Part shown: in pieces, positions 662 to 57,430 of the stretch
Numbering within the stretch: the first letter of the stretch is position 1
Layout of the letters: every line of letters begins with the position of its first letter
The notes under the pieces: generated by a model
Databases searched by the model: none
Seen by the model: only the letters and a program-made list of their open reading frames with translations
Told to the model about the DNA's origin: nothing
Assembly (NCBI GenBank): GCA_025774935.1
Contig: JALGZK010000010.1
Location: forward strand, 3,640 to 67,639
Source: a bacterium
GTDB lineage: Bacteria > Joyebacterota > Joyebacteria > Joyebacterales > Joyebacteraceae
Direction: 5' to 3'
DNA length: 64,000 nucleotides
Program-made: the position numbers and the translations under genes

Positions 662-1195
662 TCGAGTCTCTCCTTGATGAGCGCGCCCGACTGCGCTTCT
701 CGCGACCCGTCCGTGAGAGGGCCCCCGAAGCCGCCGCCCGACGGCCGCGGACCTCCTGGAGCCCCGGACCGGGAAGCCCGGCGGGGCCCGCCGTGTTGTG
801 TTTCTGGCGAATTGGAGCGAGTTTAGCGGGCGGGGACCCCGGAGTCAAGGACGCGGCGGGTGAACGAGGGGCGGGAGGGTCGGGAGGGCGCGCTGGTGCG
901 CGCCGGAGTGGCCCGCAGGGGCCCGCAGGGCGTCTCGCCCCGCCTCCCCGACACGAGATCCCGGCATCCGCCCCCGGAAGTCCGGGGACCGAGCCGGGCG
1001 GGGCCTCTGGCCCGAGGCGCTGGTACGCTCCTTGCAAAACGATAATGCTTGCGGTCGGCGCGGGGAGGGGGTACAGTTAAGTGAAAGTTTACAGAATGGC
1101 CAGCGATTCCACAGAACCTGGGGTGACATCGAGTGCTTCCTATTGCGAATACTGGAGCGCCCTCGCAAGCGCGAGAGCTTGTCGGGAGCAGCGGA

Positions 1196-3153: not shown

Positions 3154-3933
3154 CTACTTCCTGCGCCTCCTCACCACGCCGACCATGCCGACGATGCCGC
3201 TCCCCAGGAGGATGAGCGTTCCGGGCTCCGGAACGACTCCAGCGCCGTCGATGCCATCGAACGTGCCGTTGAGACTGACGAGGTCGTTGCGGCACCCGAG
3301 CGTCCACTCGAGGCCAATCCCCTCGCCGATCCCGGGGTTCATGAGCAGGCTCTTCGAGATCGTCACTTCGAACACGTACGTTCCGAAGCCGTTCTCCATG
3401 AGGCCGTAGTCGTAGTAGTCGACAGTGGCCGTGCCGAGATCGACGCCGCCCGCGAAGTTCGACGGCCCGGTCTCAGCCACGAAGTGCGTGTTCGCCTGGA
3501 ACCAGTCGGTCTCTTCCGTATCGGCCACCTGTCCGGTCCCACCGTCGATGTCGACACCGAGGTCGTAGGTTCCCCCCCCCAGATCGATGGCCAGGTCACC
3601 CGGGACTACCTGCTCCCCGAGGAACTGGACTCCGTCGGGAATCGGCAGGGACGTCACGACCGCGATGTAGGCGTTGGTTGCGTCGTCATCGAAGTACATA
3701 GCCTCGATGTCGAACTGCTCACCGCCGTACGGACGTCTGCCCAGGTGTGTGCTCCAGTTGTCGTCGGCGAAGTACTCGGCCGTCTCCGATGTCGGCGTCC
3801 AGTCGTGGGTGAAGTCGCCGAATCTGTCGACGGCCAGCTCCACTCCGAACCAATCGGAGAGGAGCGCCGCCCCGGCGGGAACCGCCGAGAGCAGCAAGAG
3901 CACGCCGACGCCGAGGATCAGAAGTCGTCTCAT
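3154..3933 (-). CDS. PEP-CTERM sorting-domain protein (putative exosortase substrate)
   Basis: ORF 3154..4032; start at internal ATG (MRRLLILGVGVLLLLSAVPAGAA signal peptide) with AGGAGG about 7 nt upstream. C-terminus VPEPGTLILLGSGIVGMVGVVRRRRK is VPEP + hydrophobic helix + Arg/Lys tail; Gly/Asp/Thr-rich body. Confidence 0.85.
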   Translation of the reverse strand: MRRLLILGVGVLLLLSAVPAGAALLSDWFGVELAVDRFGDFTHDWTPTSETAEYFADDNWSTHLGRRPYGGEQFDIEAMYFDDDATNAYIAVVTSLPIPDGVQFLGEQVVPGDLAIDLGGGTYDLGVDIDGGTGQVADTEETDWFQANTHFVAETGPSNFAGGVDLGTATVDYYDYGLMENGFGTYVFEVTISKSLLMNPGIGEGIGLEWTLGCRNDLVSLNGTFDGIDGAGVVPEPGTLILLGSGIVGMVGVVRRRRK

Positions 3934-4332
3934 GGCATGCCTCCTGTGAGGAAGGACAATGGAATCATGATCATGAACGCAAAGAACACCAACGCCGCTA
4001 CTGCCACTGCTATGCCCGCTCTCATGCGTCACCTCTGGTTGCCAGCTCTTGGTGTCGGTGCACGAGGTGTTTTCCTTGACAACTTCAATAGTATCACAAG
4101 TAGCCAGCCCTTGACAAGTGCTTTTGTTGGTGCATTTGTCATTTGATGGCTAACTTGTTATCTCATGGTCTTTTACGGGGTCGTTCGGTCGTGAGGGGCT
4201 CAAGGGGCGGGGCTGGGAACCCTCAGCGGGCGGCCCCTGGGGCCCCATTCACGGTCCCCCCGGGCCCCTAACGACGTCGCCCGCGGCCGGAGGGGCGGCC
4301 GCGGGCGGGTAGCGTAGGGGTGGCTGTGCCGG

Positions 4333-6357
4333 CTACCTCAGCACCGTGATCTTCCTGGTTGCGACGGCCTCGGGCGTACGGAGCTCCGCGAGGTAGACCC
4401 CGGCGGACACCCGGTGCCCCGACTCGTCACATGCGTCCCAGGCGACCGTGTGATCGCCCGGCTGCAGGCGTCCGTAGGCCAGCTCGCGGACGACCCGCCC
4501 CGAGGTCGCGAGGATCCTGATCGCCACCCGGTCTACGCCCCCCGGCAGCGAGAACGCGAGGGTGGCCGGTCCCGGCGCCGGATTCGGGTAAGCGCTCAGG
4601 GCGAGCGTCGGCGCCGTGGCGCTCGCCATGACGATCTCCATGCTGTCGGACGGCCCGCTCTCGTTCCCGGCCGCGTCCGCGGCGGTGACCCAGTACCTGT
4701 AGGAGTACCCCTCCTCGACGCTCTCGTCGAGGAAGCTGGGTCCCGAAACCGGAGGGTCGGTGAGACAGACCGTCCGGCAAGGCGTGTCGTCCTGGGCCCG
4801 TGAACTCCTGTAGACGTAGTACCCGACCAGATCGTCCTCCTGGTTCGGCTCCCACGTGATCCGGATCCCGTTCCCCTCCTCCCACGCCAGAAGGCCCGAG
4901 GGAGCGGACGGCGGGACCAGATCGGGCCCCAGAAGCGTTACGAACTCCTGGTCCCCACCGATGTTGAGACCTCCCACCCGGTCCCAGGCGAGGACCCGGT
5001 AGTGGTACGTCGTCCCGGGCATCAGGTCCACGAGGTCCGCGCCGAACACGCAGTCGCCGGCACCGGCAGGAACGCCCGTCCGTGAAGAGCCGTACGTGGT
5101 GGTGAGCCCGTACTCGATCCAGGTCGTGCAGGGACGAGACGTGACCCAGTTCAGCCGCGCAGTCTCCTCTCCGACGGCACCGACGCCCGCTCGGATGATC
5201 CCGGGGGGATGCGTGTACGTCATCTGTCCCGTCGGAGCGATCGTCCTGAACGCGCCGACGTCTCCGCAGGTGGTGTCGCTCCCGCAGGCCGACAGGGTCA
5301 TGAACGAGTACTCCGCGTACGGGGCGACTGGCGCCACCACGACCGCGTGGTTCGTGACGAGCGTCGTGTCGATATCGGTCGAGCAGTCGAGCACCCCACC
5401 CGTGCCGTACCGGACGAGCGACGACGCCGCGCGGTCGGTGCTCCACGTGATGAGAACCGACGTTGCCGAGAGCTCTTCCACGTCGACCCCCCACATCATC
5501 GGCGGTCCGGTCGGACCCAGCTCGAGCGTCTCGAACGTCGCGTCCACGGAGCCCGCCTGCGAACCGTACGCGTCCTCAGACAGGACGCGGAAGTGGTAGA
5601 GCTCACCGTCCACGAGCCCGCTCAACGTGACCGAGTGCTCCGACACGAGCTCCTCGTCGACGGGCGTCTCCAGGCCGTACGCGCTCGTCAGGCCGTAGAG
5701 CACCTGGGAGGTGGCGGGGCGGGACGTCCGCCATGCGACCGCGGCCGTCGTCGGCGTGATGTCGGTCACCTGGACGTCAGTGATCTCGAGGGGCGCGAGC
5801 AACGTCTGGAACTCGTGGTCGCCGGACTGCGCGCTCCCGCCCTCCGCGTCCTCGGAGACGACGCGGAAGTGGTAAACGCTGCCGGACGTGAGGCCGGTCA
5901 GCTCGACGGCGTGGTCGGTCACGAGAGGCGTCCCGTGGGGAGACCAGAGCCCGTAGGACTCGGTGGGCCCGTACTCGACGCGGGAGTCGGCGGGGTGGTT
6001 CGTCTGCCACGTGACGAGGACCGAGGTCCCCGTGATCTCGGAGACCGCGACGTCGTGGATCACGAGCGAGCCGTCGAGGGTGAAGCAGATGGAGAGATCG
6101 CCGGGCGGGTAACCGGAGTCGTCGACCACGAAGCTCATGATCCCGGACTCGTCAGAGACGACCGGGCTCCCGTTGAACTCGTCGCCGTCGACCGTCACCT
6201 CGAACCCTGAGGAGGGCGCGACGCCGATCACGATCTGCGCGAGTTCCGCCCTGGAGCCGGGCTCCGCCTGGGCGGCTCCGGCCAGGAGCCCCCAGACGAG
6301 AAGGGCCGTGACCGCCGCACATGTGCCGGTCTTTTCCGCAGTAGCAGTTAGCGTCAT
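4333..6357 (-). CDS. Secreted multi-FN3-repeat protein with T9SS-type (Por/FlgD-Ig-like) C-terminal sorting domain
   Basis: 674 aa; N-terminal signal peptide ending AQA; repeated ~90-aa units containing WxT...R(V/L)xYG...Y(H/Y)FRV(L/V)SxD (purple-acid-phosphatase-N/FN3-like); last ~85 aa LSAYPNPAPGPATLAFSLP...VAIRILATSGRVVREL...GDHTVAWDACDESGHRVSAGVYLAEL...RKITVLR resembles the Por secretion tail (TIGR04183-like). Confidence 0.8.
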   Translation of the reverse strand: MTLTATAEKTGTCAAVTALLVWGLLAGAAQAEPGSRAELAQIVIGVAPSSGFEVTVDGDEFNGSPVVSDESGIMSFVVDDSGYPPGDLSICFTLDGSLVIHDVAVSEITGTSVLVTWQTNHPADSRVEYGPTESYGLWSPHGTPLVTDHAVELTGLTSGSVYHFRVVSEDAEGGSAQSGDHEFQTLLAPLEITDVQVTDITPTTAAVAWRTSRPATSQVLYGLTSAYGLETPVDEELVSEHSVTLSGLVDGELYHFRVLSEDAYGSQAGSVDATFETLELGPTGPPMMWGVDVEELSATSVLITWSTDRAASSLVRYGTGGVLDCSTDIDTTLVTNHAVVVAPVAPYAEYSFMTLSACGSDTTCGDVGAFRTIAPTGQMTYTHPPGIIRAGVGAVGEETARLNWVTSRPCTTWIEYGLTTTYGSSRTGVPAGAGDCVFGADLVDLMPGTTYHYRVLAWDRVGGLNIGGDQEFVTLLGPDLVPPSAPSGLLAWEEGNGIRITWEPNQEDDLVGYYVYRSSRAQDDTPCRTVCLTDPPVSGPSFLDESVEEGYSYRYWVTAADAAGNESGPSDSMEIVMASATAPTLALSAYPNPAPGPATLAFSLPGGVDRVAIRILATSGRVVRELAYGRLQPGDHTVAWDACDESGHRVSAGVYLAELRTPEAVATRKITVLR

Positions 6358-6751
6358 CCGATTGGGTCCCCGCCGCCGTTGGGAGTTTCACCTTCACGTC
6401 GAGATCCGCGGGGCCGGAGGCGGGTGCATAGGGGGTTGCCTGTTCGGTGGAAAACCCGGGGGCCGGCTTCGTGGGGGGGTACGTTACCGGCCCGGCGCGA
6501 CCGAGGCTTCTCGAGTGCCTCACGGTCCCCGCAGGATCTCGGCGAATCCGTAATCGCTCCTCATGTTGCACGGGATTCGCTCCCACACACCCACGACAGA
6601 TTGCACAATCTATGCCAGTTAGGAAGTAACAATGCAGGCAGGGTACCGAAAAGGGCAGGGAATGAGTGCTCCGAGGGGGCCTTGCGGGCTCGCCGGCCGA
6701 GAGGGCCGGCCCTCTCATTAATAGAGGAGCCTCGCCTGGGCACGCGCGGGG

Positions 6752-6859: not shown

Positions 6860-8473
6860 CTACGGCGCCGCCGGGCGCGGCGAGCCCGAGACGGTGTTCG
6901 AGACCGCCGTCCCTCCGAACGAGTCGACGACAGCAACCTCGTACCAGTAGACGAACGAATCGACCAGGCTCTCGTGCGTGAAGAAGGTCTCCGTCCGGTC
7001 GGTCAGGCGTGCGATCACACGCTTGGTGCCCAGGTCCGGCGGGTTCGGGGGATCCTGGTCCCAGCAGAAGAGCTCGTACGCGAGGAAGTCGTCGTCCGTG
7101 TTCACCGACCATGAGAGCTCGAGGCTCGCCGAGTCAGGCGCCCACGGCTCCGCGAGCTCCACCGGCGTGGGGAGCTCGTTCTCCATCGTCGTCCCGACGA
7201 CCTCGTTGCTGATGGCCGAGAGGCCGATGTCGTCGAAGACGTAGACCGCGTAGTAGTACGTCGAGTCGGGCTCGAGACCGGTGTCCGTGAAATCGGTCAG
7301 CGTCTGGTTCGTGATGTCCGCGATGAGCTCGCGCTCGGACGACGTGTCGACCCCCGGGATGTACGACCGGTAGAGCCTGTAGCTGTCGAAGTCGCTGTCG
7401 TTGTTCCTCGTCCACGACAGCCCGATCCGCCGCTCGGAGATCGGCACAGGCGGGTTCAGGGTCACGGACGTCGGCGGGTCGAGGATCGTGACGAGTGTCT
7501 GCGCCACGACCGGCTCCGCCTGGTTTCCGACGTCGTCCGTGAAGAAGCCGCTGACCGTTCCGTCGAGAATCTCCACTCCGATCTCGATGACGTAGTCGCG
7601 CTCGTAGACTCCGTCGTTCGGAACCGTGTCCCCTCCTACGCCGTCGTCGTAGAGGGCGATGGCAATCACGACGTTCCCGATGTCGACCTCCGCCTGACCG
7701 TACAGCTCCTGCGCGTCGAGCGTGAAGTGGATCGTCTCCCCCGCGACCATGGACGCGCCCTGAGTGTCTTCCGTCACCGACTCGATCACGGCCCGGGTGT
7801 CGAGGATGATGCCGTCGCTCGCGATCGTGGAGTCGTTGTCCTCGCCGTCGCGGAATCGGGCGTAGACGTTCTTCACCCCGTCGCCTCCCTCAAGCTCCCA
7901 CGCGGACGTCGTGCGGAACGGCTGCCACTGGGCGCCGACGAGATTCTCGTTGTTCGAGAGCTGCATCAGCTGCGTGCCGGCGGCGGCGGACATCGTGAGC
8001 GTTACGTTTCGGCTGGGCGTCTTCATCTGGCCGTTGTCGATCGTCACGCCGTAGATCGCGGGCGTCGCCGTGATGGTCGACGACAGCAGGCCCTCGAGCC
8101 CGTGCGTGTTCACGGCCGAGACCGCGTATGCGTACTCCGTGCCGTTCCTCACTTCTTCGTCCGCGTAGTACGAGGTCGTCGCCGTGTTCAGGAGCTCGAG
8201 GTCCTCGGTCTCGTCCTCGATCACCTCCCACCGGTACACCATGTACTCCTCGATGTCGGTCGTGTCGCTCATCGACCAGTTCAGAGCGACGACGCGGTCC
8301 GCGATGATCGCGCCGAGATTCGAGGGCTTCCCCGGCTCCTCGGAGCCCGTGTTCGGGTTCTCGGGGTCGGCCGAGTTGTCGCGCGTTGGCGACGTGAGTT
8401 CGCCGCCGCAGCCGGCGAGGCCCACGACGAGGATGAGGGCCAGTCCGGCAGTAAGGAACCCGTGTAGTTTCAT
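6860..8473 (-). CDS. FN3-repeat lipoprotein (cell-surface protein)
   Basis: 537 aa; lipoprotein signal MKLHGFLTAGLALILVVGLAGC (lipobox LAGC); several FN3-like segments (YxYRWE, YRLYRS, YxYAV motifs); GGAGGTGA Shine-Dalgarno upstream. Confidence 0.8.
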   Translation of the reverse strand: MKLHGFLTAGLALILVVGLAGCGGELTSPTRDNSADPENPNTGSEEPGKPSNLGAIIADRVVALNWSMSDTTDIEEYMVYRWEVIEDETEDLELLNTATTSYYADEEVRNGTEYAYAVSAVNTHGLEGLLSSTITATPAIYGVTIDNGQMKTPSRNVTLTMSAAAGTQLMQLSNNENLVGAQWQPFRTTSAWELEGGDGVKNVYARFRDGEDNDSTIASDGIILDTRAVIESVTEDTQGASMVAGETIHFTLDAQELYGQAEVDIGNVVIAIALYDDGVGGDTVPNDGVYERDYVIEIGVEILDGTVSGFFTDDVGNQAEPVVAQTLVTILDPPTSVTLNPPVPISERRIGLSWTRNNDSDFDSYRLYRSYIPGVDTSSERELIADITNQTLTDFTDTGLEPDSTYYYAVYVFDDIGLSAISNEVVGTTMENELPTPVELAEPWAPDSASLELSWSVNTDDDFLAYELFCWDQDPPNPPDLGTKRVIARLTDRTETFFTHESLVDSFVYWYEVAVVDSFGGTAVSNTVSGSPRPAAP

Positions 8474-8518: not shown

Positions 8519-9283
8519 CTAGAACTTGATGGCGAACCCGACCGTTGATCCGTCCGGCGTGAGTGCGGCGTAGAACCCGGACGGCTCAGCGCCGAGCTGG
8601 CTCACCGTGGGAGCCTCGCTGGTCGGCGGCGAGATCATGAAGGCGTCGACCACGTTGATCGCCCAGATTCCGATGGCCGCATACATCCAGACGTCGCGCT
8701 TCTGCTGCCAGTCCTCGGCGTCGCTGTATGTCGATTCCACCTCTTCCCACGCGAGCTCGATCTCCTCGATCTGGGTCGCGTCCAGGTAGTCGTCGTACGC
8801 CTCTTCGTACGTGTCCTTCGCGTCCACGTAGTTCGACTGCGTCCAGACGAGCCCGCCGAGCGCCACCGCCTCCGCGATGAAGAAGAAGGCTCCCTTCGCT
8901 GCCTGGTCGGCGTAGACCTGTCCCCATCCAGGGATGATGACCGAGCGGAATCCGGCCCCGGACGCGGTCTTCCGCGTGAGACGGATCTCGATCTCCTCCA
9001 CCGTGGTCGCCGACAGCACAGTGACCCCCGTCCACTCCTCGTACCCGGTCATGCGTGCTCGGATCTCGTACGTCCCGGAGAGACCGCGCTCGAGCCGCCA
9101 GGGAGTCACGCCCCGAAGGGCATGGTCTCCGAGGAGCTCGACCACGGCTCCCGAGGGAACCGAGGTGATGACTACGCCTCCCCCGGTCGCGTTCGCGGCC
9201 GGCTGCGCCGTGGAGTCCCCGACGAGGGGAAGCGCGAGCAGGAGGATCGCGAGGACTGGGAGACCCAGTGGTCTGAGAGACAT
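8519..9283 (-). CDS. PEGA-domain protein with DUF5683-like C-terminal region
   Basis: ORF 8519..9502; start at internal ATG (MSLRPLGLPVLAILLLALPLVG signal peptide) with AAGGAG about 6 nt upstream; PEGA-like VVITSVPSGAVVELLGDHALRGVTPW...GTYEIRARMTGYEEW, then IIPGWGQVYADQAAKGAFFF. Confidence 0.7.
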   Translation of the reverse strand: MSLRPLGLPVLAILLLALPLVGDSTAQPAANATGGGVVITSVPSGAVVELLGDHALRGVTPWRLERGLSGTYEIRARMTGYEEWTGVTVLSATTVEEIEIRLTRKTASGAGFRSVIIPGWGQVYADQAAKGAFFFIAEAVALGGLVWTQSNYVDAKDTYEEAYDDYLDATQIEEIELAWEEVESTYSDAEDWQQKRDVWMYAAIGIWAINVVDAFMISPPTSEAPTVSQLGAEPSGFYAALTPDGSTVGFAIKF

Positions 9284-9371
9284 GTGCGACTCCTTCTGGT
9301 CTGTCTGTCGGCCTCGTCCGCCGCTCTCGACCGGGACAACCGGCCAAAGGCGGGCCGCGGCGATTCTATGG

Positions 9372-10853
9372 TCACCCTTCGGTGCTGTCAAGGTCACCCG
9401 GACCGCGAGCGGCGCGCGGGCGGCTGTCGCTCGGGTCGAATCCCTCGGAACGCCCCGCTTCCCGCGGTTTTCTTCTTGCGAGTGACTTGAATCCTGTGAC
9501 ATCGATTTCGTATTTTCGAATGAGATCGTAGACGGTCGACCGGCTCACGCCGATCGAACGGGCCGCACGAGAGACGTTGCCGGCGGCCCGCCTGAGCGCG
9601 TCGACGACGATCTCGTGTTCCAGTGCGTCCTTCGCTTCACCGAGTGTCTGCGCGCGCCGTTCAGTCTCGGAGTCGAGCCCGAGGTCGGCCGCCGTGAGCC
9701 TGTGACCGGATGACATGACGACCGCGCGCTTGACCCGGTTCTCCAGCTCGGGGATGTTCCCGGGCCACTCGTGCGCCATCATCGCCCGCACCGCCGACCG
9801 GGTGAACCCCGACAACCTCCGCCCGTGCTCGGAGGCGCAGCGCTCGAGGAGGTCCTCCGCGAGAAGGGCGATGTCCTCGCCCCGCTCTCTGAGCGGGGGC
9901 AGCGTGACCGTCACCACGCTCAACTGATAGTAGAGGTCCTCCCGGAACCCGCCTTCCGCGACGACCTCTTCCAGATCGTCATCGGCGGCAGCTATGATCC
10001 TGACGTCCGCCTTGATCGGATCGTGCGGGCCTTTCCGCTCGATCTCTCCCGACTGAAGGAACGCGGAGAGCCGAGCCTGAAGATGCTGCGACAGCTCGTC
10101 GACTCCTACGACGAACAGCGTCCCGCCGTCGGCCTGTTCGATTCGGCCCGGCATCTTCTCCGCGCCGTTGAACGTCCCGTTCCCGTTGCCGTTTCCGAAG
10201 ACCTCGGCCTCGAGGTACTCGGACGGCGTCGCGCGCAGGTCGACAGCGACGAAGGGCCCTCGCGAGCGGCGACTCAGGTGGTGGATTCCTCGGGCGATGA
10301 GCTCCCTTCCGGTTCCTCGTTCGCCCACGAGAAGCACGCCGACTTCGGTCGCGGCGACCTTCCTGGCGGAGGAGAACACGTCCTGCATGGCCTCACAGGT
10401 CCCCGCCAGGCTGTCGAGGCGCTCGACGCCCGAGAGACGGTCCGGAACGGCGTCCGCGGCCGCCTCCAGCTCCTGGATCCTGAGCGCGCGCTTCACGAGG
10501 ACCCCGAACTCGTCGATGTCGAAGGGCTTCACGCAACAGTCGCACGCTCCGAGCTCGATGGCGCGGACGGCGAGGTCGCGGTCCCCGCTCGGGGCGACCA
10601 CGATGATCTTGAGCCTGAGCCTGGCCTTCCGCGCCAGCCGGAGGAGCTCGAGCTCCTCGCCGGAGCCCTCTTCGCCGCGCTCCAGCGTGCCGTCGAGCGT
10701 CATCACGTCCGGGCGGAACCGGCGGACGGCCTCGATGGCACCGGCGATCGTGTCGGAGGCGCACACGTCGTAGTCGCGCGCGAGACCTTCCCGGAGCAGC
10801 CTCCGGGTGACCTCGTCGCCTTCCACGATCAGGACTCTCTTGCGCTCGGACAC
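9372..10853 (-). CDS. prsR: Sigma-54-dependent response regulator (NtrC/AtoC family; PrsR-like PEP-CTERM-box regulator)
   Basis: 493 aa, GTG start with GGAGG upstream; receiver domain (VLIVEGDE...DVMTLDG), AAA+ sigma-54 interaction domain (LLVGERGTGRELIARGIH, GAFxGA-like FNGAEKMPG, EWPGNIPELEN), C-terminal Fis-type HTH (GNVSRAARSIGVSRSTVYDLIRK). Confidence 0.85.
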   Translation of the reverse strand: MSERKRVLIVEGDEVTRRLLREGLARDYDVCASDTIAGAIEAVRRFRPDVMTLDGTLERGEEGSGEELELLRLARKARLRLKIIVVAPSGDRDLAVRAIELGACDCCVKPFDIDEFGVLVKRALRIQELEAAADAVPDRLSGVERLDSLAGTCEAMQDVFSSARKVAATEVGVLLVGERGTGRELIARGIHHLSRRSRGPFVAVDLRATPSEYLEAEVFGNGNGNGTFNGAEKMPGRIEQADGGTLFVVGVDELSQHLQARLSAFLQSGEIERKGPHDPIKADVRIIAAADDDLEEVVAEGGFREDLYYQLSVVTVTLPPLRERGEDIALLAEDLLERCASEHGRRLSGFTRSAVRAMMAHEWPGNIPELENRVKRAVVMSSGHRLTAADLGLDSETERRAQTLGEAKDALEHEIVVDALRRAAGNVSRAARSIGVSRSTVYDLIRKYEIDVTGFKSLARRKPREAGRSEGFDPSDSRPRAARGPGDLDSTEG

Positions 10854-10956: not shown

Positions 10957-12486
10957 CTACTCGGGCAGGGCCTCCAGCTGCCGGGCCGCCTCTTCCGCCC
11001 ACGGCTCTCCGGCGTACGTGCTCGCGATGTCCTCGAGCACCTCGCGCGCACTGGCGAAGTCCTCGAGCTGCCTCGTGTACAGATCGGCGGCCTGCAGCTT
11101 CATGATCGGCGCGTCCTCCGAGTCGGGCAGAAGCTCCGACGTCTCTAGGAGGATCCGCGCCGCCGCCTCCCACTTCTCCTGTCGGATCCGCGCGTCGACG
11201 AGGTACCCGCGGGCGGCAATCTCGGCCGACGTCCCGGCGTACTCCCTGATCACGCGCGTGTACTGCTCCACGGCCCGCTCGAGCGTGCTGGCCCCGACCT
11301 CCTCGTCACCGCTCTGGACGTACCGGTCGGACACGTGGATGAGTGCGCGGAGGCCGTACAGCGTGGTCGGGTACTCGCGCGCGAGAACGCTGTACTGCGC
11401 CGCCGCGCGATCCCAGTTCCCGGTCGCCTCGAAGCTCATCGCCAGGTACTGCATCGCCGTGGCGCTCACGACCTGCTCGGTCGTAAACTCGTCGATGACT
11501 CGTGAGAGGCGCCGCCGCGCGTCGTCGTGGCGCCCCGCGGCGAGGTCCTGTCTCGCGAGCGAGACGGCCGCCGTCGCGCCCGACACGTCGTCCCCGTACT
11601 CGCTCTCGACCCTCTCGTAGTACTCGCGCGCGAGACCGTTGCGCCCGAGTCTCGTCTCGTAGATCTCGGCCAGTCCGAGCCAGAGGGGCGCGCGGTTCTC
11701 GGGCGTTCCGAAGTCGCGGTCGAGCTCCTCGTACACCCTGGCCGCTTCCTCCCAGCGGTCCTCGAGCCCGTAGCTCTCCGCCGTGAGCGACGTCGCGAGC
11801 TCCGCGGTGGGCGATTCCGGCCACTCCGCGATCCAACGGGCGTAGTACTCCCTGGCACGGTCGGACCACGCCGCCGCCTCGGCCGCATCTCCCCGAGCGC
11901 GGTAGACCGCCGCGACCGACAGGGGCGCGCGGAGGATCCGCGTGTCGGGACTCGACTCCGGGTCGCGGGCGGGCTGCCAGTCCTCAATGAGCCCCGCGTA
12001 GACCGCCACGGCCTCGGGCCACCTGTCCTCGCGCCGCTCGACGGCGCCGAGCGCGAGCGTCGCATCGATCGCAAGGCCCCTCTCGAGCGCGTAGCTGTCT
12101 CGCACGGACGAGTAGAGGCGCCGCGCCTCGTCGAAGTCCCCGCGGTCCATCGCGAGCTGCCCGAGCGCGAGCCTGCTGTGCCCGGAGATGCGGGCGATCT
12201 GCCTGGCGACCTCGGAGACGCCCTCCGAATCCCCCTCGGGTGGCGGGAACGCCCGCGTGATGTTCCGGTACTCGTCCTCGACGCGGGCGCGCATCTCGTC
12301 GGTGTTCATACCGGGGTTGACGCTCACCGCGCGCATGAGGCTGCTCGCGCGCCAGGCCATTCTCTCGGCCTCGTACCTGTCCCTGATCTCCCTCGATGAT
12401 TCGCATCCGACGCACACGGCCACGACCACGATCAGGAGGACCGCCGCGAGCCGCCTTGCTGCGCGAGTGTCTCTCAGTGTCATCAT
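10957..12486 (-). CDS. TPR-repeat lipoprotein (PrsT-like)
   Basis: ORF 10957..13209; start at ATGATG 12481-12486 (MMTLRDTRAARRLAAVLLIVVVAVCVGC, lipobox) with GGAGGG upstream; TPR-like helical repeats throughout. The longer N-terminal extension in the track is Arg-rich and rejected. Confidence 0.75.
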   Translation of the reverse strand: MMTLRDTRAARRLAAVLLIVVVAVCVGCESSREIRDRYEAERMAWRASSLMRAVSVNPGMNTDEMRARVEDEYRNITRAFPPPEGDSEGVSEVARQIARISGHSRLALGQLAMDRGDFDEARRLYSSVRDSYALERGLAIDATLALGAVERREDRWPEAVAVYAGLIEDWQPARDPESSPDTRILRAPLSVAAVYRARGDAAEAAAWSDRAREYYARWIAEWPESPTAELATSLTAESYGLEDRWEEAARVYEELDRDFGTPENRAPLWLGLAEIYETRLGRNGLAREYYERVESEYGDDVSGATAAVSLARQDLAAGRHDDARRRLSRVIDEFTTEQVVSATAMQYLAMSFEATGNWDRAAAQYSVLAREYPTTLYGLRALIHVSDRYVQSGDEEVGASTLERAVEQYTRVIREYAGTSAEIAARGYLVDARIRQEKWEAAARILLETSELLPDSEDAPIMKLQAADLYTRQLEDFASAREVLEDIASTYAGEPWAEEAARQLEALPE

Positions 12487-13367
12487 GGCCGTCCCTCCCC
12501 TCCGGCGCCGGGAACGGCTGCGCCCGGCGCTTCGTCCTGCGTCAGGTGGAGGAAGAGCCGCGTGATGCCGCCGAGCGTCACGTAGGTCGCGAAGAAGAGG
12601 ACGACGACCCAGATCACCATGAGGAGCGGCACGAGCACCGGGGAGAACGTGTGCGCGATCGTGGCGCTCTGCCTCCACAGCCAGAGCGGCAGGATCTCGA
12701 GCGCGGCCGGCATGGCCACGAGCAGGAACGTGGCGACCGGGGTCCTCCCGAAGAGCACCAGGCTGCCTCCGACCGCCGCGCGCACGCTCCTTCCCGCGAG
12801 CACGATGTAGGGTGCCGTGTAGACGAGGACGGCCTGGACGAAGAGGACGACGAGGATCGTCGATCCCCTCACCACCCGGAACGTCCTCGGGCTCTCCTCC
12901 GCGAGATACCCGAAGAACGCGTAGGACGTCCTCGTCACGATCTGAGCGAGACCGACGGCGATCACCGCCGCGACCACGAGCGACCAGTACCTCGACGACG
13001 CCCGGCTCCACGCCTCCCCGAACCCCACCCGCCTCCGCTGATAGAAGGTGCCGAAGAGCACGATCCCCGTCGCCGCGGTCACCGCTCCCAGGAAGACGGC
13101 CAGGAACGGGTCGAGCTCGCCCAGCCCGGCCCTGAGCACGAGGAAGTTGTTCGGGTAGTGCAGCACGGACTCCCCGAACCGCCACCTCAGGAGCGGCACC
13201 ATGAACCACGAGACGACCGGGTACGCGAACCCGCCGATCGCGGCCAGGATCGCGGCCTGCCCCGCGGCGTAGATGGCGAACGGGAGGAGCGCCACGCGCC
13301 GCGAAAACGCCCTGAACGTCTCCACCCAGCCCCAGATGAGAGCATTGATCTGATCGATGAGGCCCAT
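12483..13367 (-). CDS. Uncharacterised polytopic membrane protein embedded in the exosortase operon
   Basis: 294 aa with about 7-8 hydrophobic helices; stop TGA overlaps the TPR-lipoprotein ATG (ATGA); no recognisable family motif. Confidence 0.65.
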   Translation of the reverse strand: MGLIDQINALIWGWVETFRAFSRRVALLPFAIYAAGQAAILAAIGGFAYPVVSWFMVPLLRWRFGESVLHYPNNFLVLRAGLGELDPFLAVFLGAVTAATGIVLFGTFYQRRRVGFGEAWSRASSRYWSLVVAAVIAVGLAQIVTRTSYAFFGYLAEESPRTFRVVRGSTILVVLFVQAVLVYTAPYIVLAGRSVRAAVGGSLVLFGRTPVATFLLVAMPAALEILPLWLWRQSATIAHTFSPVLVPLLMVIWVVVLFFATYVTLGGITRLFLHLTQDEAPGAAVPGAGGEGRP

Positions 13368-13463: not shown

Positions 13464-14108
13464 TCAGCCCTCCCCGGCGAACACGAAGAGCTCCGGAAGG
13501 CGCACGAGCGCGGCCTCCGAGAAGTCCTTCAGCACCTCCATGGCGCCGTCGAAGTCACCGTCCCTCACGACGGTCGACACTCTAACGAACGCTCCGTAGG
13601 TCACGTTCGACACGATCCCCGACGCTGCCATCCGCGTCATGAACTTGTCGCGGTCGGCCGTCGCCAGATCCCCCGCCGTGTACCACCAGTAGACCGCGAG
13701 CCGGCGGACGCCCTGCTGCTCGACGAGCACCCAGTTGGCGTCGAAGCCGCCGTCTTTCCTCCAGAGGGGCTCGAGCCCCGAGTCGACGTCCGTCCATCCC
13801 TGGGACCGGTAGCATACGAGCGGCTCGTGCGCGCCGTACCGGTCGTTCTGATGGAAGATGATGACGAACCATATCCAGTCGCCCACGTCGTTCGTGTACC
13901 GCCGCGCCAGCGTGTCCGTCGCCTCGAGTTCCTCGTAGACGACGTCTTCGAACGACAGATCGACGCTGCGCCATCCTCCGAGCTGCGCCGGGAACGCTCC
14001 GAGCGAGCCCGCCTCGAGCTCCATCCTGTCGGGCGGGTTCAGGTGCACGTAGAAGGCGCCCGCCCCGAGGAGCGCGACCACGACGATCGTTCCGAATGAG
14101 GTCCTCAC
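13464..14108 (-). CDS. epsI: EpsI-family exosortase-associated protein
   Basis: 214 aa; N-terminal membrane anchor (IVVVALLGAGAFYV) then periplasmic domain; immediately downstream of exosortase with ATGA start/stop overlap at 14105-14108. Confidence 0.7.
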   Translation of the reverse strand: MRTSFGTIVVVALLGAGAFYVHLNPPDRMELEAGSLGAFPAQLGGWRSVDLSFEDVVYEELEATDTLARRYTNDVGDWIWFVIIFHQNDRYGAHEPLVCYRSQGWTDVDSGLEPLWRKDGGFDANWVLVEQQGVRRLAVYWWYTAGDLATADRDKFMTRMAASGIVSNVTYGAFVRVSTVVRDGDFDGAMEVLKDFSEAALVRLPELFVFAGEG

Positions 14109-15043
14109 GCGCCCCTCCCCTCAGGGGCGGTCTCTTCCCCCTCGCACGTCTCACATCTCAGGAGCTTCCGCACCACCACGAGTCCGACGAACGCGAACAT
14201 GAACAGCAGGAACCCTGAGAAGTCGTGGAAGAACCCGAGCGCGGCGTCGATGCCCCAGACGTGGGCGACGAGACAGAGCGCGGTGATCCTGAGCATGTTC
14301 CCGGCGATCGCGAGCGGCACGCTGACCGCGACGATGACGAGCCGCTTCCACGCGGCGCCCGCCGTCAGATACGCGAAGAGCGTTCCGAGGGCCACGAGCG
14401 CGATGAGCGACCTGAGCCCGCTGCAGGGGTCCGCGATCCGAAGCGACCCGGCCGGGACGTGGATCGTCATGCCCGAGCGGACGAGTGGCACGCCGAGCTT
14501 CGCGGCGAGTGCACTCCCTGAGCGCGCCGCGAAGACCTTGAGGTTGAAACTCAGCACGTTCATGAGGAACGGCGGCCACGGCAGCATGAACACGAGGAAC
14601 GCGAGCGGGAACCAGATCACCCTCGTCGCCCGACCCCCGAAGAAGAAGAGCGACAGGCCGAAGAGCATGAGGACGAACGAGTAGCCCTGCGTCATGAAGA
14701 TGCCCGCACGGATCGACACCACGTTCCCTACGAGCGCGAGAGCGATGATCGCGATGCCCCAAGCCGTCCCCGCCCTCACCGCATCCACGAACCTCTTCCG
14801 CTCGCGCCACAGGAGGAAGAGGACGATCGGCGGGATCAGGAACCCGTGCGAGTAGTTCGGCGAGGACATCCAGGTCCGCCAGAGCGTCGGGAAGACCGGG
14901 TAGTACACGATCGCAACGAGGACGGCCGCCACCGCGAAGCGCGCGAGCTGCCGCGCGGCGAGCGTCCCCCGAGGGGTCGCGCCCCCGCTACCGGTCGCGT
15001 TCCGGAGCTCCGCCCCGTCTCGTCTGTCGTTCCCGGTCGTCAA
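14105..15043 (-). CDS. xrtA: Exosortase (XrtA/EpsH family)
   Basis: ORF 14105..15388; polytopic membrane protein with exosortase-like motifs (ADPCSGLRSL, GNMLRITALCLV). Start assigned to TTG 15041-15043 with GGAGG about 5 nt upstream, overlapping the upstream TGA (TTGA); the Arg-rich 115 codons before it are rejected. Confidence 0.8.
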   Translation of the reverse strand: MTTGNDRRDGAELRNATGSGGATPRGTLAARQLARFAVAAVLVAIVYYPVFPTLWRTWMSSPNYSHGFLIPPIVLFLLWRERKRFVDAVRAGTAWGIAIIALALVGNVVSIRAGIFMTQGYSFVLMLFGLSLFFFGGRATRVIWFPLAFLVFMLPWPPFLMNVLSFNLKVFAARSGSALAAKLGVPLVRSGMTIHVPAGSLRIADPCSGLRSLIALVALGTLFAYLTAGAAWKRLVIVAVSVPLAIAGNMLRITALCLVAHVWGIDAALGFFHDFSGFLLFMFAFVGLVVVRKLLRCETCEGEETAPEGRGA

Positions 15044-18224: not shown

Positions 18225-19499
18225 TCACGACGCCGCCTCCTGACGTTCGCCCGTCGGCCCCGCGACGTCACGGCCGCCGCCGCGCGTCGGCCGCGATCGG
18301 GACGATGCGGTCACCTCCCGGAGCGACGAGTGGTTCGGGCGCGAGAGCCGCGCGTACTGGATGTCCGCCGCGAGCCATCGGACGTCCGCGTCGTGCGGGA
18401 CGATCCCGAGCCGGGGCAGGCAGTGCACGGGGTACCGCCTTGAGACGGGCCCGGCGATCGAGGTCACGCCGGATCTGAACCCGGCGTCGGCGACGACCGC
18501 GGCCGTCGTCGCGTCGAAGTGACGGTTCGTCCTTCCGTTCGGGTAGGCGAAGTGCTCGACCTCGCACCCTAGGAGCTCCTCGAGGGCGCGCTTCGACTCC
18601 CCCACCTCGCCGACGAGCGCGTCGGTCGAGACGCTCGGGAGGTTGTAGTGCGTCACCGAGTGCGCGCCGATCGTCATCCCGCCCTCGTGCATCTCCCGGA
18701 TCTCGTCCGGGTTCATCATGATCCTCGAGTCGTACGTGTCCCGCGAGTTCCCGCATGCCTCCCGGACCTCGTTCACGATCTCGAGGGCCTCGCGTTCGCC
18801 CGATCGCTTCACGACCGCGGTAATGAACGCGATCGCCTTCTCCTTCGCGCGCGGGGTCGAGAGGTCTATCGAGCAGGCGCCGAAGGTCCCGCACTTGAGC
18901 CCTTGAGACTCGGTCCTGCGGATCGCGTGGCGAAGGGCGACGGTCCAGAGGATCGATTCGTCCGAGATCGCTCCCGTCGTCACGTAGAACGTCGCGGTCG
19001 CCCCGTGCTTCCTGAGAATCGGGAACGCACAGCGGTAGTTGTCCTCGTACCCGTCGTCGAACGTGATCGCGACGGTTCTCGGGTCGACCCGTCTGCCCGA
19101 AGCGATGGCGTCCGCAAGTTCGGGCACGCCGACGACGCGGTGCCGCTCCACGAGGTAGGCAACCTGCCTGTCGAAGACGTCCGTCGAGACGACCAGGCTC
19201 CGCTGGACGTAGTCTCCCGCCCAGCCGGGGTCGTCGTTGACCGAATGGTAGCGGAGGATCGTCGCACCGCCCCACGGTAGGAGGCTCATGGCCCTCACGA
19301 GAGGCGCGCAGTTCCGGAACGCGCGGCCGAACCCCCACAGGCCGTCGACGGAGATGGCGCCGTTCTCGTCGATGTACGGGACGTCGCCACGCCCCGGGCC
19401 GAGTCCGGCCCTGTCCGCGTCGCCCCACAGGCAGCGGCTCTCCTCGCCGGTGAGACCACGGCCCCTCCCGCGCTCCCTCATGTCGGGGTCCTTCCTCAT
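18225..19499 (-). CDS. Polysaccharide deacetylase (NodB-homology, PEP-CTERM-locus type)
   Basis: ORF 18225..19538; NodB motifs ILRYHSV and VAITFDDGYEDNY. Start placed at ATG 19497-19499, which overlaps the stop of the upstream tandem GT4 gene (ATGA) with GAGGGAG about 11 nt upstream; ATG 19289 is an alternative. Confidence 0.75.
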   Translation of the reverse strand: MRKDPDMRERGRGRGLTGEESRCLWGDADRAGLGPGRGDVPYIDENGAISVDGLWGFGRAFRNCAPLVRAMSLLPWGGATILRYHSVNDDPGWAGDYVQRSLVVSTDVFDRQVAYLVERHRVVGVPELADAIASGRRVDPRTVAITFDDGYEDNYRCAFPILRKHGATATFYVTTGAISDESILWTVALRHAIRRTESQGLKCGTFGACSIDLSTPRAKEKAIAFITAVVKRSGEREALEIVNEVREACGNSRDTYDSRIMMNPDEIREMHEGGMTIGAHSVTHYNLPSVSTDALVGEVGESKRALEELLGCEVEHFAYPNGRTNRHFDATTAAVVADAGFRSGVTSIAGPVSRRYPVHCLPRLGIVPHDADVRWLAADIQYARLSRPNHSSLREVTASSRSRPTRGGGRDVAGPTGERQEAAS

Positions 19500-21832
19500 A
19501 CCGTGTCGAACTCCCTCGCGCGCAGCGCGTCGACCCAACCCACGAGCCCGGACACCCGCTCGTCGAGCAGTTCCAGGTAGTAGTCGATCGTGTCCTCGAC
19601 CATGTGCTCCGTCGAGAACCTGGCGAGGACGCGTTCCCTCCCGGCCCTCCCCATGCGGCGCCGCAGCTCCTCGTCGCCGAGAAGCTCGAGCACGCGACGG
19701 GCGACCCCTTCGGCGTCGCCCGCGGGAAGCAGGAAGCCGGTCTCTCCCTCCTCGATCAGCTCGGGGTTTCCTCCGACGGCGGTCGCCACGACGGGCCTCC
19801 CGGCCGCCATCGCCTCGAGGACCACGTTCGAGCAGCCCTCCTTGATCGAGGTGAGCACGGACACGTCCGTGCTCGCGAGGACGGCGCCGATCCGGTCGGT
19901 CATGCCGGCGAACGTCACTGCCTCCCCGAGCCCGAGCTTCCGCGCGTGCTCGGTGAGCTCCGCCCTGAGCTGTCCGTCTCCGACAATGAGGAACCGCGCG
20001 TCGGGTCTCTCCCTCGCGATCAGAGCGGCGGCCTCGAGGAACGTCGCGTGGTCTTTCTTCGGGGTCAGGCTCGCGATGACGGTGATCGTGGGGCCGCTGC
20101 CCGCGCCGCTCCCGGGGAACGGCTCCGGAGGAGGCGAGCCGGTCCTCGACGGGACGTTTCCGTCGGCGGGCGCCGCGTCGACGTGGCCGCTGACCCGGCG
20201 GACCGAGATCCCGTTGTAGATCACGCGGATCTTCTCCGGGTCGACCCAGTGCATCTCCGCCACGTAGTCCTTGACCGCGCCGGCGTTCACGATCACGCGG
20301 TCCGTGATGCCAGAGAGGATCCTCTCGATGGCGTTTCCGCGAAACCTCGTGTGAACGTCGACGTTCCGCACCGACGTGAGGACGATCGGGACGCGAAGGA
20401 ACCGTCCGACGATGAGCCCCCTCCAGTTCGCCGACGACAGGAACGCGTGCAGGATCACCGGCCGCTCCGTCCTCACCAGACGCGCGAGCTTGCGGGACGC
20501 GCCGGAGAAGTTACCGAGGCGCTTCGCGAGCACGACCAGACGGACCCCGGCCTCCTCGATCTCGCGGCCGAGCGGCCCCAGCTGGCCGAGGCAGCAGACG
20601 ATCGGCTCGAACCGGTCCCTCGGGAGCCGGGTCGCGAGCTCCATGAGCTGGCGCTCGGCCCCACCGCGTTCGAGCTGTCCGATCACGTAGAGGACCTTGA
20701 TCTTCCCGGCCGGGGCGCGGTCCGCGTGCCCCGAGAGCGCAAGGTCGTAGAGCGCCTCCGTCTGCCCGACCATGTGCTTAGCGGTGAAGGCCTTCTCGTA
20801 GGACCGGCGGGCCGCGGCCGCAAGACGCGACCTCCGCCCGGCGTCCCTCGAAAGGAGAGCTATCTTGTCCGCGAGCGCTTCGTGGTCCCGCGGCGGAACC
20901 ACGTACCCGTTCACGCCGTCCCTGATCACCTCTGGGACGCCCCCGACGGCCGTCGAGACGCACGGGACCCCGGCCGCCATCGCCTCGAGCACCGTGATCG
21001 GCAGCCCCTCCCACGCCGAGGAGAGGACGAAGAGGTCCGATCCCCTGAGGAGCCTCGGCACGTCGTCGCGCGACCCGAGGAACGACACGCGATCGCCGAC
21101 GCCGAGCTCGGCCGCGTGGTCGCTCAGGTGCTGGAGGATCGGGCCGCCGCCGGCGACGGCGAAGTACACGGGCGGGACCAGGTCGGAGACTGCCGCGGCC
21201 GCCCGGATGAGGTTCTCGTGGTCCTTCTGTGGACTGAGGTTGCCGACGGTCAGGCAGAGGACGGCGTCGTCGGGCACGCCCAGCTCGCGTCGCACCTCTG
21301 CGCGGTCGCCGGCGACCGGGCGAAGTGTGTCGTCGATGCCGTTCCGGATGGTCACGAGGCGCGCCGGGGAGAACCTCCCCTCGGCGAGCCGGGACCGGGC
21401 GACGGCCTCCGACACGGCGATCTGCGCGTTCTCGCGCATGCTCGCGAGCCTGCTCAACGCGAGCCTGAATGGGAAGCGAGCCGCGGCGACGTTGTGCTCG
21501 GTGCGGAGCACGGCGGTGGCCCCGCCGAGGATGGCGGCGGGGATTCCGACGGTCATCGCAGTGAAGTTGTGGTCGTGGACGACATCGACGCCGCGTCGCC
21601 TGATTAGACCGGCGAGTCTGAGGACGGCGCGGAAGTCGAGACGCGACCTTCGTTCCAGGGCGTGGACGGGGACGCCGCGTTCGTCGAGGACGGCAGCCAG
21701 GGGACCCGCGTCCCCCACGCAGCACACCTCGGGCTCGTAGCGCGAGCGGTCGTGGGAGGTCGCGTACTCGACCACCACGCGCTCGGCCCCACCGAGCCCC
21801 AACGAACCAACGACGTGGAAGACCTTCTTCAT
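19496..21832 (-). CDS. Tandem GT4-GT4 glycosyltransferase (two complete GT4 modules in one polypeptide)
   Basis: Start at ATG 21832 (MKKVFHVVGSLGLGGAERVV); first module ends ...EALYDLALSGH, second begins KIKVLYVIGQLERGGAERQ; each has an EGxP...EAMAAG C-terminal signature. The 525 codons upstream in the same track ORF are Arg-rich and overlap the CoA-ligase-like gene, so they are rejected. Confidence 0.8.
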   Translation of the reverse strand: MKKVFHVVGSLGLGGAERVVVEYATSHDRSRYEPEVCCVGDAGPLAAVLDERGVPVHALERRSRLDFRAVLRLAGLIRRRGVDVVHDHNFTAMTVGIPAAILGGATAVLRTEHNVAAARFPFRLALSRLASMRENAQIAVSEAVARSRLAEGRFSPARLVTIRNGIDDTLRPVAGDRAEVRRELGVPDDAVLCLTVGNLSPQKDHENLIRAAAAVSDLVPPVYFAVAGGGPILQHLSDHAAELGVGDRVSFLGSRDDVPRLLRGSDLFVLSSAWEGLPITVLEAMAAGVPCVSTAVGGVPEVIRDGVNGYVVPPRDHEALADKIALLSRDAGRRSRLAAAARRSYEKAFTAKHMVGQTEALYDLALSGHADRAPAGKIKVLYVIGQLERGGAERQLMELATRLPRDRFEPIVCCLGQLGPLGREIEEAGVRLVVLAKRLGNFSGASRKLARLVRTERPVILHAFLSSANWRGLIVGRFLRVPIVLTSVRNVDVHTRFRGNAIERILSGITDRVIVNAGAVKDYVAEMHWVDPEKIRVIYNGISVRRVSGHVDAAPADGNVPSRTGSPPPEPFPGSGAGSGPTITVIASLTPKKDHATFLEAAALIARERPDARFLIVGDGQLRAELTEHARKLGLGEAVTFAGMTDRIGAVLASTDVSVLTSIKEGCSNVVLEAMAAGRPVVATAVGGNPELIEEGETGFLLPAGDAEGVARRVLELLGDEELRRRMGRAGRERVLARFSTEHMVEDTIDYYLELLDERVSGLVGWVDALRAREFDTV

Positions 21833-21930
21833 CTCGACAACCCCGTGCACCCTTCCCGGCACTCGAGACGCCGGGTCCTTCGTTTCGCCTCGCTGTCTGC
21901 GCCGAGTCTCGCCCTTCGCGTCGCCCGCCC

Positions 21931-35695: not shown

Positions 35696-36079
35696 CGTTC
35701 GTCCCCCCGAGTCAGAACTGCGTGGAAGTCGCCGGTCGTGCCGGCGGCGTCCCGTCTGTTCCACGTTCTCGCTGAGTTCCCAGAGTTGTGCGGCACACGA
35801 CGGGCGGCCCGGGACGCGAGTCCCGCAGTCGCCCGGCGCACACATGGTTACCGGCTACGGACACAGCGGTCAACAGGAAACAGTCAGAACTGTTGCCTTT
35901 TCCGACACCCCCACTCCAGCCACTCGCACGGGTCATCTCTAATACCTTGCGGTTCAACAAGTTACGGATATCCACAAGGGGGGCTCCGCGTGCCGGGAGC
36001 GAACGCAGGGACCCCCCGGAAAGCACACAATGAAGCAGTTCCGGGGGGTCCTTTTGCATCACCTGTGCCAGAGAGAACC

Positions 36080-57121: not shown

Positions 57122-57382
57122 CTAGGCGTCGGCGTGCTCGTCCCTGCCCTCGAGCCTCTGCGTGATGGTCTCGGCGGCGACGGCCGACAGGATCACGTGA
57201 TCGCTGTCGGTCACGATGACGGCGCGCGTCCGCCGCCCCTGCGTCGCGTCGACCAGCTTGCCGGCCTCTTTGGCGTTGTCCTTCAGGCGCTTGACGGGCG
57301 CCGATCCGGGCGTGACGATCGCGACGACGCGATGCGACGCGACGACGTTCCCGAATCCTATGTTGAGAAGGACGCCGTTCAT
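57122..57382 (-). CDS. DUF370 / RemA-like small regulatory protein
   Basis: 86 aa; [29 protein letters not shown]...[25 protein letters not shown] closely matches the RemA/YlzA (DUF370) family; conserved position between yicC and gmk. Confidence 0.75.
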
Positions 57383-57430
57383 CCCGGACCTCCCGTTTCG
57401 GACGCCGCGCCCTCGGGCGCGTGTCCGCGA

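Follow-up and report, generated by a model that had tools for sequence, protein, structure and literature searches.

A PrsR-like regulator with degenerate sigma-54 activator motifs and no adjacent PrsK in an exosortase locus

Described regulators and the gene studied here

In exosortase/PEP-CTERM polysaccharide loci, the response regulator PrsR is encoded together with the sensor kinase PrsK, and 12 of 13 such pairs were found as tandem genes (Haft 2006, PMC1569441). In proteobacterial PrsR systems, the PEP-CTERM genes carry a PrsR box (motif 1) and a -24/-12 element. Here we analyze a PrsR-like regulator gene (9372..10853) in a 64,000-nt stretch of DNA from an uncultivated bacterium of the Joyebacteraceae (GenBank assembly GCA_025774935.1, contig JALGZK010000010.1, positions 3,640 to 67,639). 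This whole stretch is referred to as the window, and its features are given in window coordinates and lie on the minus strand unless marked (+). The gene runs from a GTG start behind GGAGG to a TGA stop (9372-9374) and encodes a 493-amino-acid (aa) protein with the Pfam domains Response_reg, Sigma54_activat, AAA_lid_14, and HTH_8. An earlier reading of the DNA letters and open reading frames (ORFs) alone, referred to below as the sequence-only reading, had described a PrsR-like, sigma-54-dependent regulator without an adjacent PrsK and with an extended C-terminal tail.

Regulators that resemble enhancer-binding proteins (EBPs) but lack GAFTGA and Walker B act at sigma-70 promoters (PMC6158489; bioRxiv 10.1101/2023.06.06.543975). 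VpsR, the master regulator of vps genes in Vibrio cholerae (PMC6158489; PDB 7v2b), is a REC-AAA+-HTH protein without GAFTGA and the Walker B Asp-Glu pair; no cognate kinase has been established for it, and it acts with sigma-70 RNA polymerase (PMC6158489). The regulator studied here shares this architecture and these losses and sits in the kind of exopolysaccharide/biofilm locus that VpsR controls, but VpsR is a distant match (E = 3e-44, over AAA+ only), its ancestor is a Vibrio NtrC-like protein rather than PrsR, and the targets proposed here are predicted ones. TyrR/PhhR, NtrX of Brucella and Caulobacter (PDB 5m7n), NtrC of Rhodobacter capsulatus and Caulobacter, HupR, and HsfA likewise have an EBP fold in which the L1 GAFTGA is deleted or replaced. 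These proteins regulate sigma-70 promoters, and some of them need nucleotide binding but not hydrolysis. In most of them, a cognate kinase (NtrB, NtrY, HupT) is still present and the phospho-acceptor pocket is intact, and they have no exosortase link, whereas the regulator here combines kinase loss and a degenerate receiver with loss of Walker B and the arginine finger. FleQ of Pseudomonas aeruginosa (PDB 5exx, 8p53), a strong match (E = 1e-57), is an EBP whose receiver-like domain cannot be phosphorylated, and it regulates pel/psl exopolysaccharide promoters independently of sigma-54 through a nucleotide ligand on its AAA+ domain. Unlike the present protein, FleQ keeps a functional ATPase and GAFTGA and is a sigma-54 activator of flagellar genes.

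Compared with these systems, we favor, at a probability of about 0.6, the interpretation that the regulator is a PrsR-derived pseudo-EBP, kinase-less and dead as an ATPase, that would act as a sigma-54-independent DNA-binding regulator of its own locus. By its sequence, it falls within the definition of atypical EBPs given in PMC6158489, namely an EBP fold with a DNA-binding domain, absence of GAFTGA, and non-consensus Walker motifs. Atypical EBPs are an established kind of protein, and this one is independently derived and exosortase-linked, with intermediates preserved in syntenic loci. It adds an exopolysaccharide-linked case to a short list (VpsR, TyrR, NtrX, HupR), and its intermediates provide a useful system for the conversion of a sigma-54 activator to a sigma-70 regulator.

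Family, missing kinase, and motif loss

As in described PrsK/PrsR systems (PMC1569441), the regulator has a REC-AAA+-Fis HTH architecture, and its gene adjoins that of a TPR lipoprotein within an exosortase/EpsI/glycosyltransferase locus; genes for an exosortase, EpsI, a glycosyltransferase, Wzc-like and Wza-like proteins, and a PEP-CTERM protein cluster with it. The top NCBIfam family was TIGR02915 (PrsR) with 414.4 bits, followed by AtoC with 331 bits, but the PrsR score falls under the curated equivalog cutoff of 502.6 bits. The protein is therefore PrsR-like, as the sequence-only reading had it, but not an equivalog. TIGR02915 was also the best family, again below the cutoff, for the related proteins P0003 (388.5 bits) and P0016 (324.1 bits), whereas the canonical neighbor P0020, encoded in locus L004, scored 536.1 bits, over the cutoff. 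Judged from these relationships, the regulator descends from the PrsR of exosortase/PEP-CTERM polysaccharide loci. A protein scan of genome collections returned three close relatives, and the other 77 loci encoded unrelated EBPs (Fibrobacter, Pseudomonas, and others). The nearest related genomes are the metagenome-assembled genomes AB_69_Bin_103 and Meg22_46_Bin_130, and more distant syntenic relatives are labeled Candidatus Eisenbacteria.

Absence of a kinase, noted in the sequence-only reading as a departure from the PrsK/PrsR pairing, was borne out. Neither a HisKA or HATPase domain nor rpoN was found among the ≈60 large ORFs of the window scanned with Pfam or NCBIfam, and tblastn with the bona fide PrsK of L004 gave no match at E < 1 in the window or in eight related clade loci. 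In L004 ("Eiseniibacteriota" according to UniRef), the gene order is exosortase-EpsI-hypothetical (282)-496 aa-PrsK-PrsR, where PrsK (TIGR02916; 342 bits, cutoff 300) lies between a TPR-like gene and PrsR (536 compared with 502.6 bits). Gene for gene, the window has homologues of the L004 set in an unchanged order, except that PrsK is missing, so that the window locus is syntenic with the canonical PrsK-PrsR locus of a related bacterium. Only 103 nt separate the TPR gene from the regulator gene, where the L004 counterpart has PrsK. The TPR lipoprotein gene (10957..12486; 509 aa, with a signal peptide ending in VGC), delimited from third-codon-position G+C (GC3) phase and its N-terminus, occupies the slot upstream of the PrsK position in the canonical locus; unlike in PrsK/PrsR systems, its product is not PrsT by profile (29 bits on TIGR02917, cutoff 312). 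A longer 750-aa "TPR" ORF (10957-13209) was rejected as a single gene, where a GC3 phase change near 12450 and synteny both indicate two genes.

The kinase-less TPR-regulator-PEGA-Fn3 order recurs in about 10 independent contigs (L001/L009, L002/L010, L003, L005, L006, L007, L098, L171/L195, L208, and L209), its TPR end being directly visible only in contigs that reach the TPR gene. This recurrence implies that absence of PrsK at the locus is a character of the clade and not an effect of the window edge.

The regulator was aligned with 120 homologues, and NtrC1 (Aquifex) numbering was taken from alignment to PDB 1ny5. A degenerate set of 24 sequences (the regulator, P0001-18, P0022, P0032, P0033, P0042, and P0044) was compared with a canonical set comprising the other 97. 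The 24 degenerate sequences were monophyletic in a neighbor-joining tree, where long-branch attraction is possible, and this clade probably comprises Candidatus Eisenbacteria and relatives.

The catalytic motifs of the AAA+ domain (Sigma54_activat plus lid, residues 149-402; 9648..10409) are degenerate. In Walker A (GERGTGRE; 10302..10325), the P-loop glycines are intact, as they are invariantly in the degenerate clade, and NtrC1 K173 is replaced by R183; this position is Lys in 15 and Arg in 9 clade members, compared with Lys in 97/97 canonical sequences. At Walker B, V249-G250 (10104..10109) stand in place of NtrC1 D238/E239, and the Asp and Glu, both present in 97/97 canonical sequences, are kept in 7/24 and 1/24 of the clade, respectively. 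The arginine-finger position R299 is Q310 (9924..9926) in the regulator, though Arg in 18/24 of the clade, and the R293 equivalent is kept. The canonical L1 loop FGHEKGAFTGA is replaced by the remnant FGNGNGNGTFNGAE (10158..10199), in which GAFTGA has become GTFNGA (T217 to N229). The L1 Thr was found in 0/24 degenerate compared with 93/97 canonical sequences, and the L1 Phe/Tyr in 6/24 compared with 97/97. The sensor II Arg is present in all 24 degenerate sequences and in 94/97 canonical ones. The GTFNGA remnant is preceded by a GNGNGN insertion, where (GN)3 is encoded by a threefold GGNAAC repeat. This (Gly-Asn)3 hexanucleotide repeat (10170-10190, minus strand) reads GGAAAC GGCAAC GGGAAC, and its copy number differs between orthologues (GNGNGNG, GGGNGNG, GGGNG, GNGNG), which suggests that variation of the L1 GN repeat arises from replication slippage.

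The receiver domain (residues 1-120; 10494..10853) is also degenerate. In the D-D-D-T/S-K active-site quintet of the regulator, G12 takes the first acidic position and A87 that of the β4 Thr, with D13, D54 (the phospho-acceptor equivalent), and K109 kept. Across the degenerate clade, the first acidic Asp remained in 2/24 sequences (96/96 canonical), the phospho-acceptor Asp in 16/24 (97/97 canonical), and the receiver Lys in 3/24 (97/97 canonical). The domain is lost altogether in P0022, P0042, and P0044 (L208:8001-9194), which are 396-397 aa long and occupy the same TPR-EBP-PEGA slot. Substitutions at the catalytic motifs vary between sublineages of the clade, which is the pattern expected of relaxed constraint on the chemistry.

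Together with the sub-cutoff score and the missing PrsK, loss of GAFTGA, Walker B, and the arginine finger sets the regulator apart from the PrsR of PMC1569441, and the substitutions at Walker B (V/G), R299 (Q), K173 (R), and GAFTGA (GTFNGA) leave the earlier expectation of sigma-54-dependent targets unsupported for this protein. From the loss of the kinase and the motifs, we infer that the regulator acts without phosphorylation and without sigma-54. Annotation pipelines will mislabel this protein and about two dozen relatives as a "sigma-54-dependent response regulator" or a "PEP-CTERM-box regulator". Because its sequence points to neither the usual phosphorylation control nor sigma-54 activation, regulon predictions from -24/-12 promoters would be wrong.

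Selection on the gene is evident. Relative to the orthologue in L008 (92% identical, dS 0.42), dN/dS was 0.11 overall, 0.11 in the receiver, 0.11 in AAA+, 0.05 in the linker and HTH, and 0.31 in the tail. The Fis-type HTH (HTH_8; 9510..9623; pLDDT, a per-residue confidence score, of ≈90) is the most constrained portion. AlphaFold2 with the family alignment gave confident receiver, AAA+, and HTH structures (block pLDDT 85-95), and low confidence was limited to the L1 loop (residues 224-227, pLDDT < 50), the inter-domain linkers, and residues 462-493. Because of the low dN/dS and the confident fold of the three domains, we conclude that the gene is not a pseudogene. The same values bear on the view that the regulator is a functionless relic heading for loss, kept only for a promoter at its 3' end or for its position in the operon. 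That view accords with the progressive decay in the clade, in which the kinase, the motifs, the receiver (P0022/P0042/P0044), and finally the gene itself (L113/L164) have gone, and with the overlap of the tail and a downstream promoter described below. It is nevertheless most improbable, given the purifying selection over a dS of 0.42, which is strongest in the HTH, the full-length intact ORFs in relatives down to ≈48% identity, and the conservation of the sensor II Arg and P-loop glycines throughout the clade.

The pseudo-EBP interpretation would place the ancestor as the response regulator of a PrsK/PrsR pair in an exosortase/PEP-CTERM polysaccharide locus, where deletion of prsK then emptied its slot next to the TPR-like gene and prsR. 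The receiver pocket has since become degenerate, the Walker B Asp-Glu and, in the present regulator, the arginine finger have been lost, the GAFTGA loop has been replaced, and the Walker A position toggles between Lys and Arg, with the P-loop glycines, sensor II Arg, AAA+ fold, and Fis-type HTH kept under purifying selection. Such a protein would retain DNA binding, would probably bind a nucleotide-like ligand, to which the invariant P-loop glycines and sensor II Arg and the Lys or Arg at Walker A point indirectly, and may oligomerize without hydrolyzing ATP. Without phosphorylation or sigma-54, it would most likely repress or activate sigma-70-type promoters within its own locus, much as VpsR, TyrR, or NtrX do.

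Promoters of the locus and the C-terminal tail

Two promoters of the locus are of the sigma-70 type, at genes where the sequence-only reading had expected sigma-54 dependence. The PEGA/DUF5683 gene (8519..9283; 254 aa), which is directly downstream of the regulator and syntenic in all related loci, and the gene for an Fn3 protein (6860..8473; 537 aa) form an operon, in which the region upstream of 8473 is only a 45-nt gap. The operon is driven by TTGACA-17-TAGAAT (9363..9391; 11/12 consensus matches), which is kept in all loci examined (six loci, plus L113). In L003, L006, and L007, the regulator ends earlier and this promoter lies in intergenic DNA, and in L001 and L002, the -10 element begins with the TAG stop codon of the regulator. 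The single PEP-CTERM protein gene (3154..4032; 292 aa) has TTGTCA-16-GATACT with an extended TG (4088..4117), which is conserved in diverged loci. Unlike the PEP-CTERM genes of PrsK/PrsR systems, it thus has a sigma-70-type promoter and no arrangement of a PrsR box with a -24/-12 element, a comparison in which only the TTTACA end of motif 1 was used.

The C-terminal tail of the regulator (residues 449-493; 9375..9509) runs into the first of these promoters. Its 45 residues after the HTH_8 match are rich in R, G, D, S, and P (7R, 6G, 5D, 5S, 4P) and are predicted by AlphaFold2 to form a short helix (FKSLARR, 452-460) followed by disorder (462-493). The median length after HTH_8 is 11 residues in the 97 canonical PrsR homologues, compared with 24-49 in the subclade of the regulator; basal members of the degenerate clade have ≈13 residues, ending around a conserved F-K-x-L motif. 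An origin of the tail in a sequencing error or frameshift was rejected, since its reading frame is maintained in three diverged orthologues (92, 70, and 63% identity). The neighboring gene models were also corrected. The regulator does lie between the TPR lipoprotein and PEGA genes, as the sequence-only reading stated, with other coordinates for both: a 327-aa "PEGA" ORF starting at 9502 over-extends into the regulator tail, and GC3 phase and synteny place the true start at the ATG at 9283 behind AAGGAG. With the corrected starts, the 45 residues belong to the regulator alone, and no other gene overlaps them.

Within the distal tail, conservation is confined to GDLDS[T/A]EG (in the regulator and P0001-P0003), encoded by ..GAC CTT GAC AGC.., and the DNA for GDLDS (its L-D codons) holds the -35 hexamer of TTGACA-17-TAGAAT. 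Because the -35 hexamer lies within these codons, what looks like protein conservation in the distal tail is best attributed to the DNA. Thus, the claimed C-terminal extension is real, but a functional Arg/Pro module is a less apt description than a genuine, weakly constrained, mostly disordered read-through into the downstream PEGA-Fn3 promoter, which is how the tail is best read. More generally, an overlapping promoter, rather than protein function, can account for residue conservation where an ORF ends.

A sigma-54-type promoter, TGGCAT-AGATT-GTGCA (6617..6602) with TGTTAC at 6631..6626 (together 6602..6631), lies upstream of the 674-aa gene with Fn3, Pur_ac_phosph_N, and FlgD_Ig domains (4333..6357). 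The pattern TGGCAY-N5-GTGCA, with an invariant TGTWAC 8-9 nt upstream, was found in each of the 16 loci extending this far. Here, the earlier expectation of a sigma-54 promoter was right, but its assignment to the regulator is not supported. In L113 (L113:1320-1420) and L164, the regulator gene is cleanly absent, with the TPR stop codon inside the TTGACA of the PEGA promoter, and the sigma-54 promoter and everything downstream are retained. Since the promoter is retained where the regulator is deleted, it must, on this comparison of loci, be independent of the neighboring regulator and be served by another, conventional EBP.

A second conserved -24/-12 element is at 1021..1036 (+) in the window and at ≈21219-21234 (-) in L003 (TGGTACGCTCCTTGCA / CGGCACGTCTCTTGCA), upstream of a GFO/IDH/MocA oxidoreductase gene; AAAACG is conserved downstream of the element in both. 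From these two conserved sites (6617..6602 and 1021..1036), we infer that the clade uses sigma-54. A sigma-54 consensus scan of the window showed no enrichment (18 matches compared with 40 expected from shuffles at ≥9/12), and only top intergenic matches that are also conserved in relatives were accepted as sites. Near 35695/35854, the other place where the sequence-only reading had suggested a sigma-54 promoter, there is only a candidate, TGGCACAGGTGATGCA (TGGCAC-N5-ATGCA; 36055-36070, minus strand), between the ddl stop codon and a terminator hairpin, upstream of the Wza-like gene. Another candidate match, TGGCACGATTGGTGCA (60692-60707, minus strand), is upstream of msrB.

These promoters bear on whether the regulator might be a conventional PrsR that is phosphorylated by a remote PrsK or another kinase and activates the sigma-54 promoter of the 674-aa gene, and possibly others. 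D54, K109, and the L1 Phe (F228) are kept in the regulator, TIGR02915 is its best family, a conserved -24/-12 promoter is present in the locus, and the clade evidently uses sigma-54, as at the site before the GFO/IDH/MocA gene. We nonetheless consider this alternative very unlikely, because the Walker B, R299, and Walker A Lys substitutions are accompanied by GTFNGA with its insertion, the score is below the equivalog cutoff, and relatives in the same slot have no trace of GAFTGA, no phospho-acceptor Asp, or no receiver. The retention of the sigma-54 promoter and leader in L113/L164 likewise argues against it.

The regulator could instead be an anti-activator of this sigma-54 promoter that occupies TGTWAC by the -24 box or poisons the ring of a paralogous EBP through mixed oligomers. 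Hetero-oligomeric EBPs are known, for example FleQ/FleT. The presence of TGTWAC in 16/16 loci, the resemblance of its reverse complement to the TTTACA end of the proteobacterial PrsR box, and the conservation of the oligomerization scaffold and HTH are consistent with this idea. It appears doubtful, however, where the lineage lacking the gene conserves TGTWAC just as well, implying that the element is independent of the regulator; moreover, neither the window nor any locus showed an active paralogous EBP, and the 6 nt of the element are too few to make up a site for a dimeric Fis-type HTH.

Several points weigh against the pseudo-EBP interpretation itself. Retention of D54, K109, and F228 would allow a residual phospho- or sigma-54-related role in this particular protein. 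The conserved sigma-54 promoter is in the same locus, 2.7 kb downstream. The absence of a kinase applies to the 64-kb window, and a distant PrsK or other kinase could be present in the genome. Deletion of the gene in L113/L164, and of the receiver domain in others, implies that the function is dispensable in some relatives. Finally, phylogenetic footprinting of intergenic alignments from five or six syntenic loci revealed no binding site for the regulator: TGTWAC was the sole conserved element upstream of the sigma-54 promoter, and around the sigma-70 promoters conservation was confined to the -35, -10, and Shine-Dalgarno sequences.

A conserved leader RNA and other genes of the window

A structured leader RNA of 142 nt (6400..6541) lies behind the sigma-54 promoter and ahead of the 674-aa gene, and its conservation greatly exceeds that of the flanking proteins. 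With a covariance model derived from six loci, full-length copies scoring 67-161 bits were found in 16 distinct loci. There is one copy per locus, always in the same position and in this locus type only: L002:14265-14406, L003:14382-14523, L006:14342-14483, L007:6409-6549, and L009:14367-14507, with further copies in L098, L113, L118, L129, L139, L169, L171, L183, L208, and L209. Pairing was preserved in 93% of cells, compared with 36-52% in slid controls, and compensatory changes were present at 12/41 pairs, compared with 1-4 in slid controls. The RNA has a long closing helix, GAGAUCC.GCGGGG / CCCCGC.GGAUCUC. No match was found in Rfam 15 at gathering thresholds, and relaxed thresholds gave only a spurious match to a long non-coding RNA. 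A metagenome scan with an exact 17-mer returned 120 loci; the covariance model confirmed just 11 of them, and the remainder are chance matches. Based on these features, the leader is a candidate for a new cis-regulatory RNA or riboswitch, and its position behind a sigma-54 promoter makes it a concrete candidate from an uncultivated phylum.

A broader interpretation, which we put forward tentatively as possible, is that the loci preserve a natural decay series, that the protein has been re-used as a ligand-gated, sigma-54-independent regulator at sigma-70 promoters, and that the signal input to the one sigma-54 promoter left in the locus has moved to the 142-nt RNA. The series would start from PrsK-PrsR, pass through deletion of the kinase to a pseudo-receiver joined to an ATPase-dead, GAFTGA-less regulator, and continue with deletion of the receiver and then of the gene.

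The exosortase/exopolysaccharide cluster spans ≈3.1 to 35.9 kb of the window and is followed by housekeeping genes (ddl, gltX, ispDF, radA, dnaB, coaBC, gmk, and others). Upstream operon partners of the TPR gene and regulator are genes for a hypothetical protein of 294 aa (12483..13367), EpsI/DUF3485 (13464-14108), and the exosortase (14105 to ≈15040). The exosortase (14105-15040) scored 195 bits on XrtA (TIGR03109; cutoff 208), with XrtD and XrtW similar, and appears to be of an unclassified subtype, paired with EpsI. A gene for a RemA-like extracellular-matrix regulator (57122-57430, minus strand) lies between gmk and yicC in a conserved housekeeping context, which gives the window a further potential biofilm regulator. 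A 1303-aa ORF (19496-23407, minus strand) encodes two tandem GT4 glycosyltransferase modules; its relatives are two-module proteins of 771-817 aa, and its true start is probably internal.

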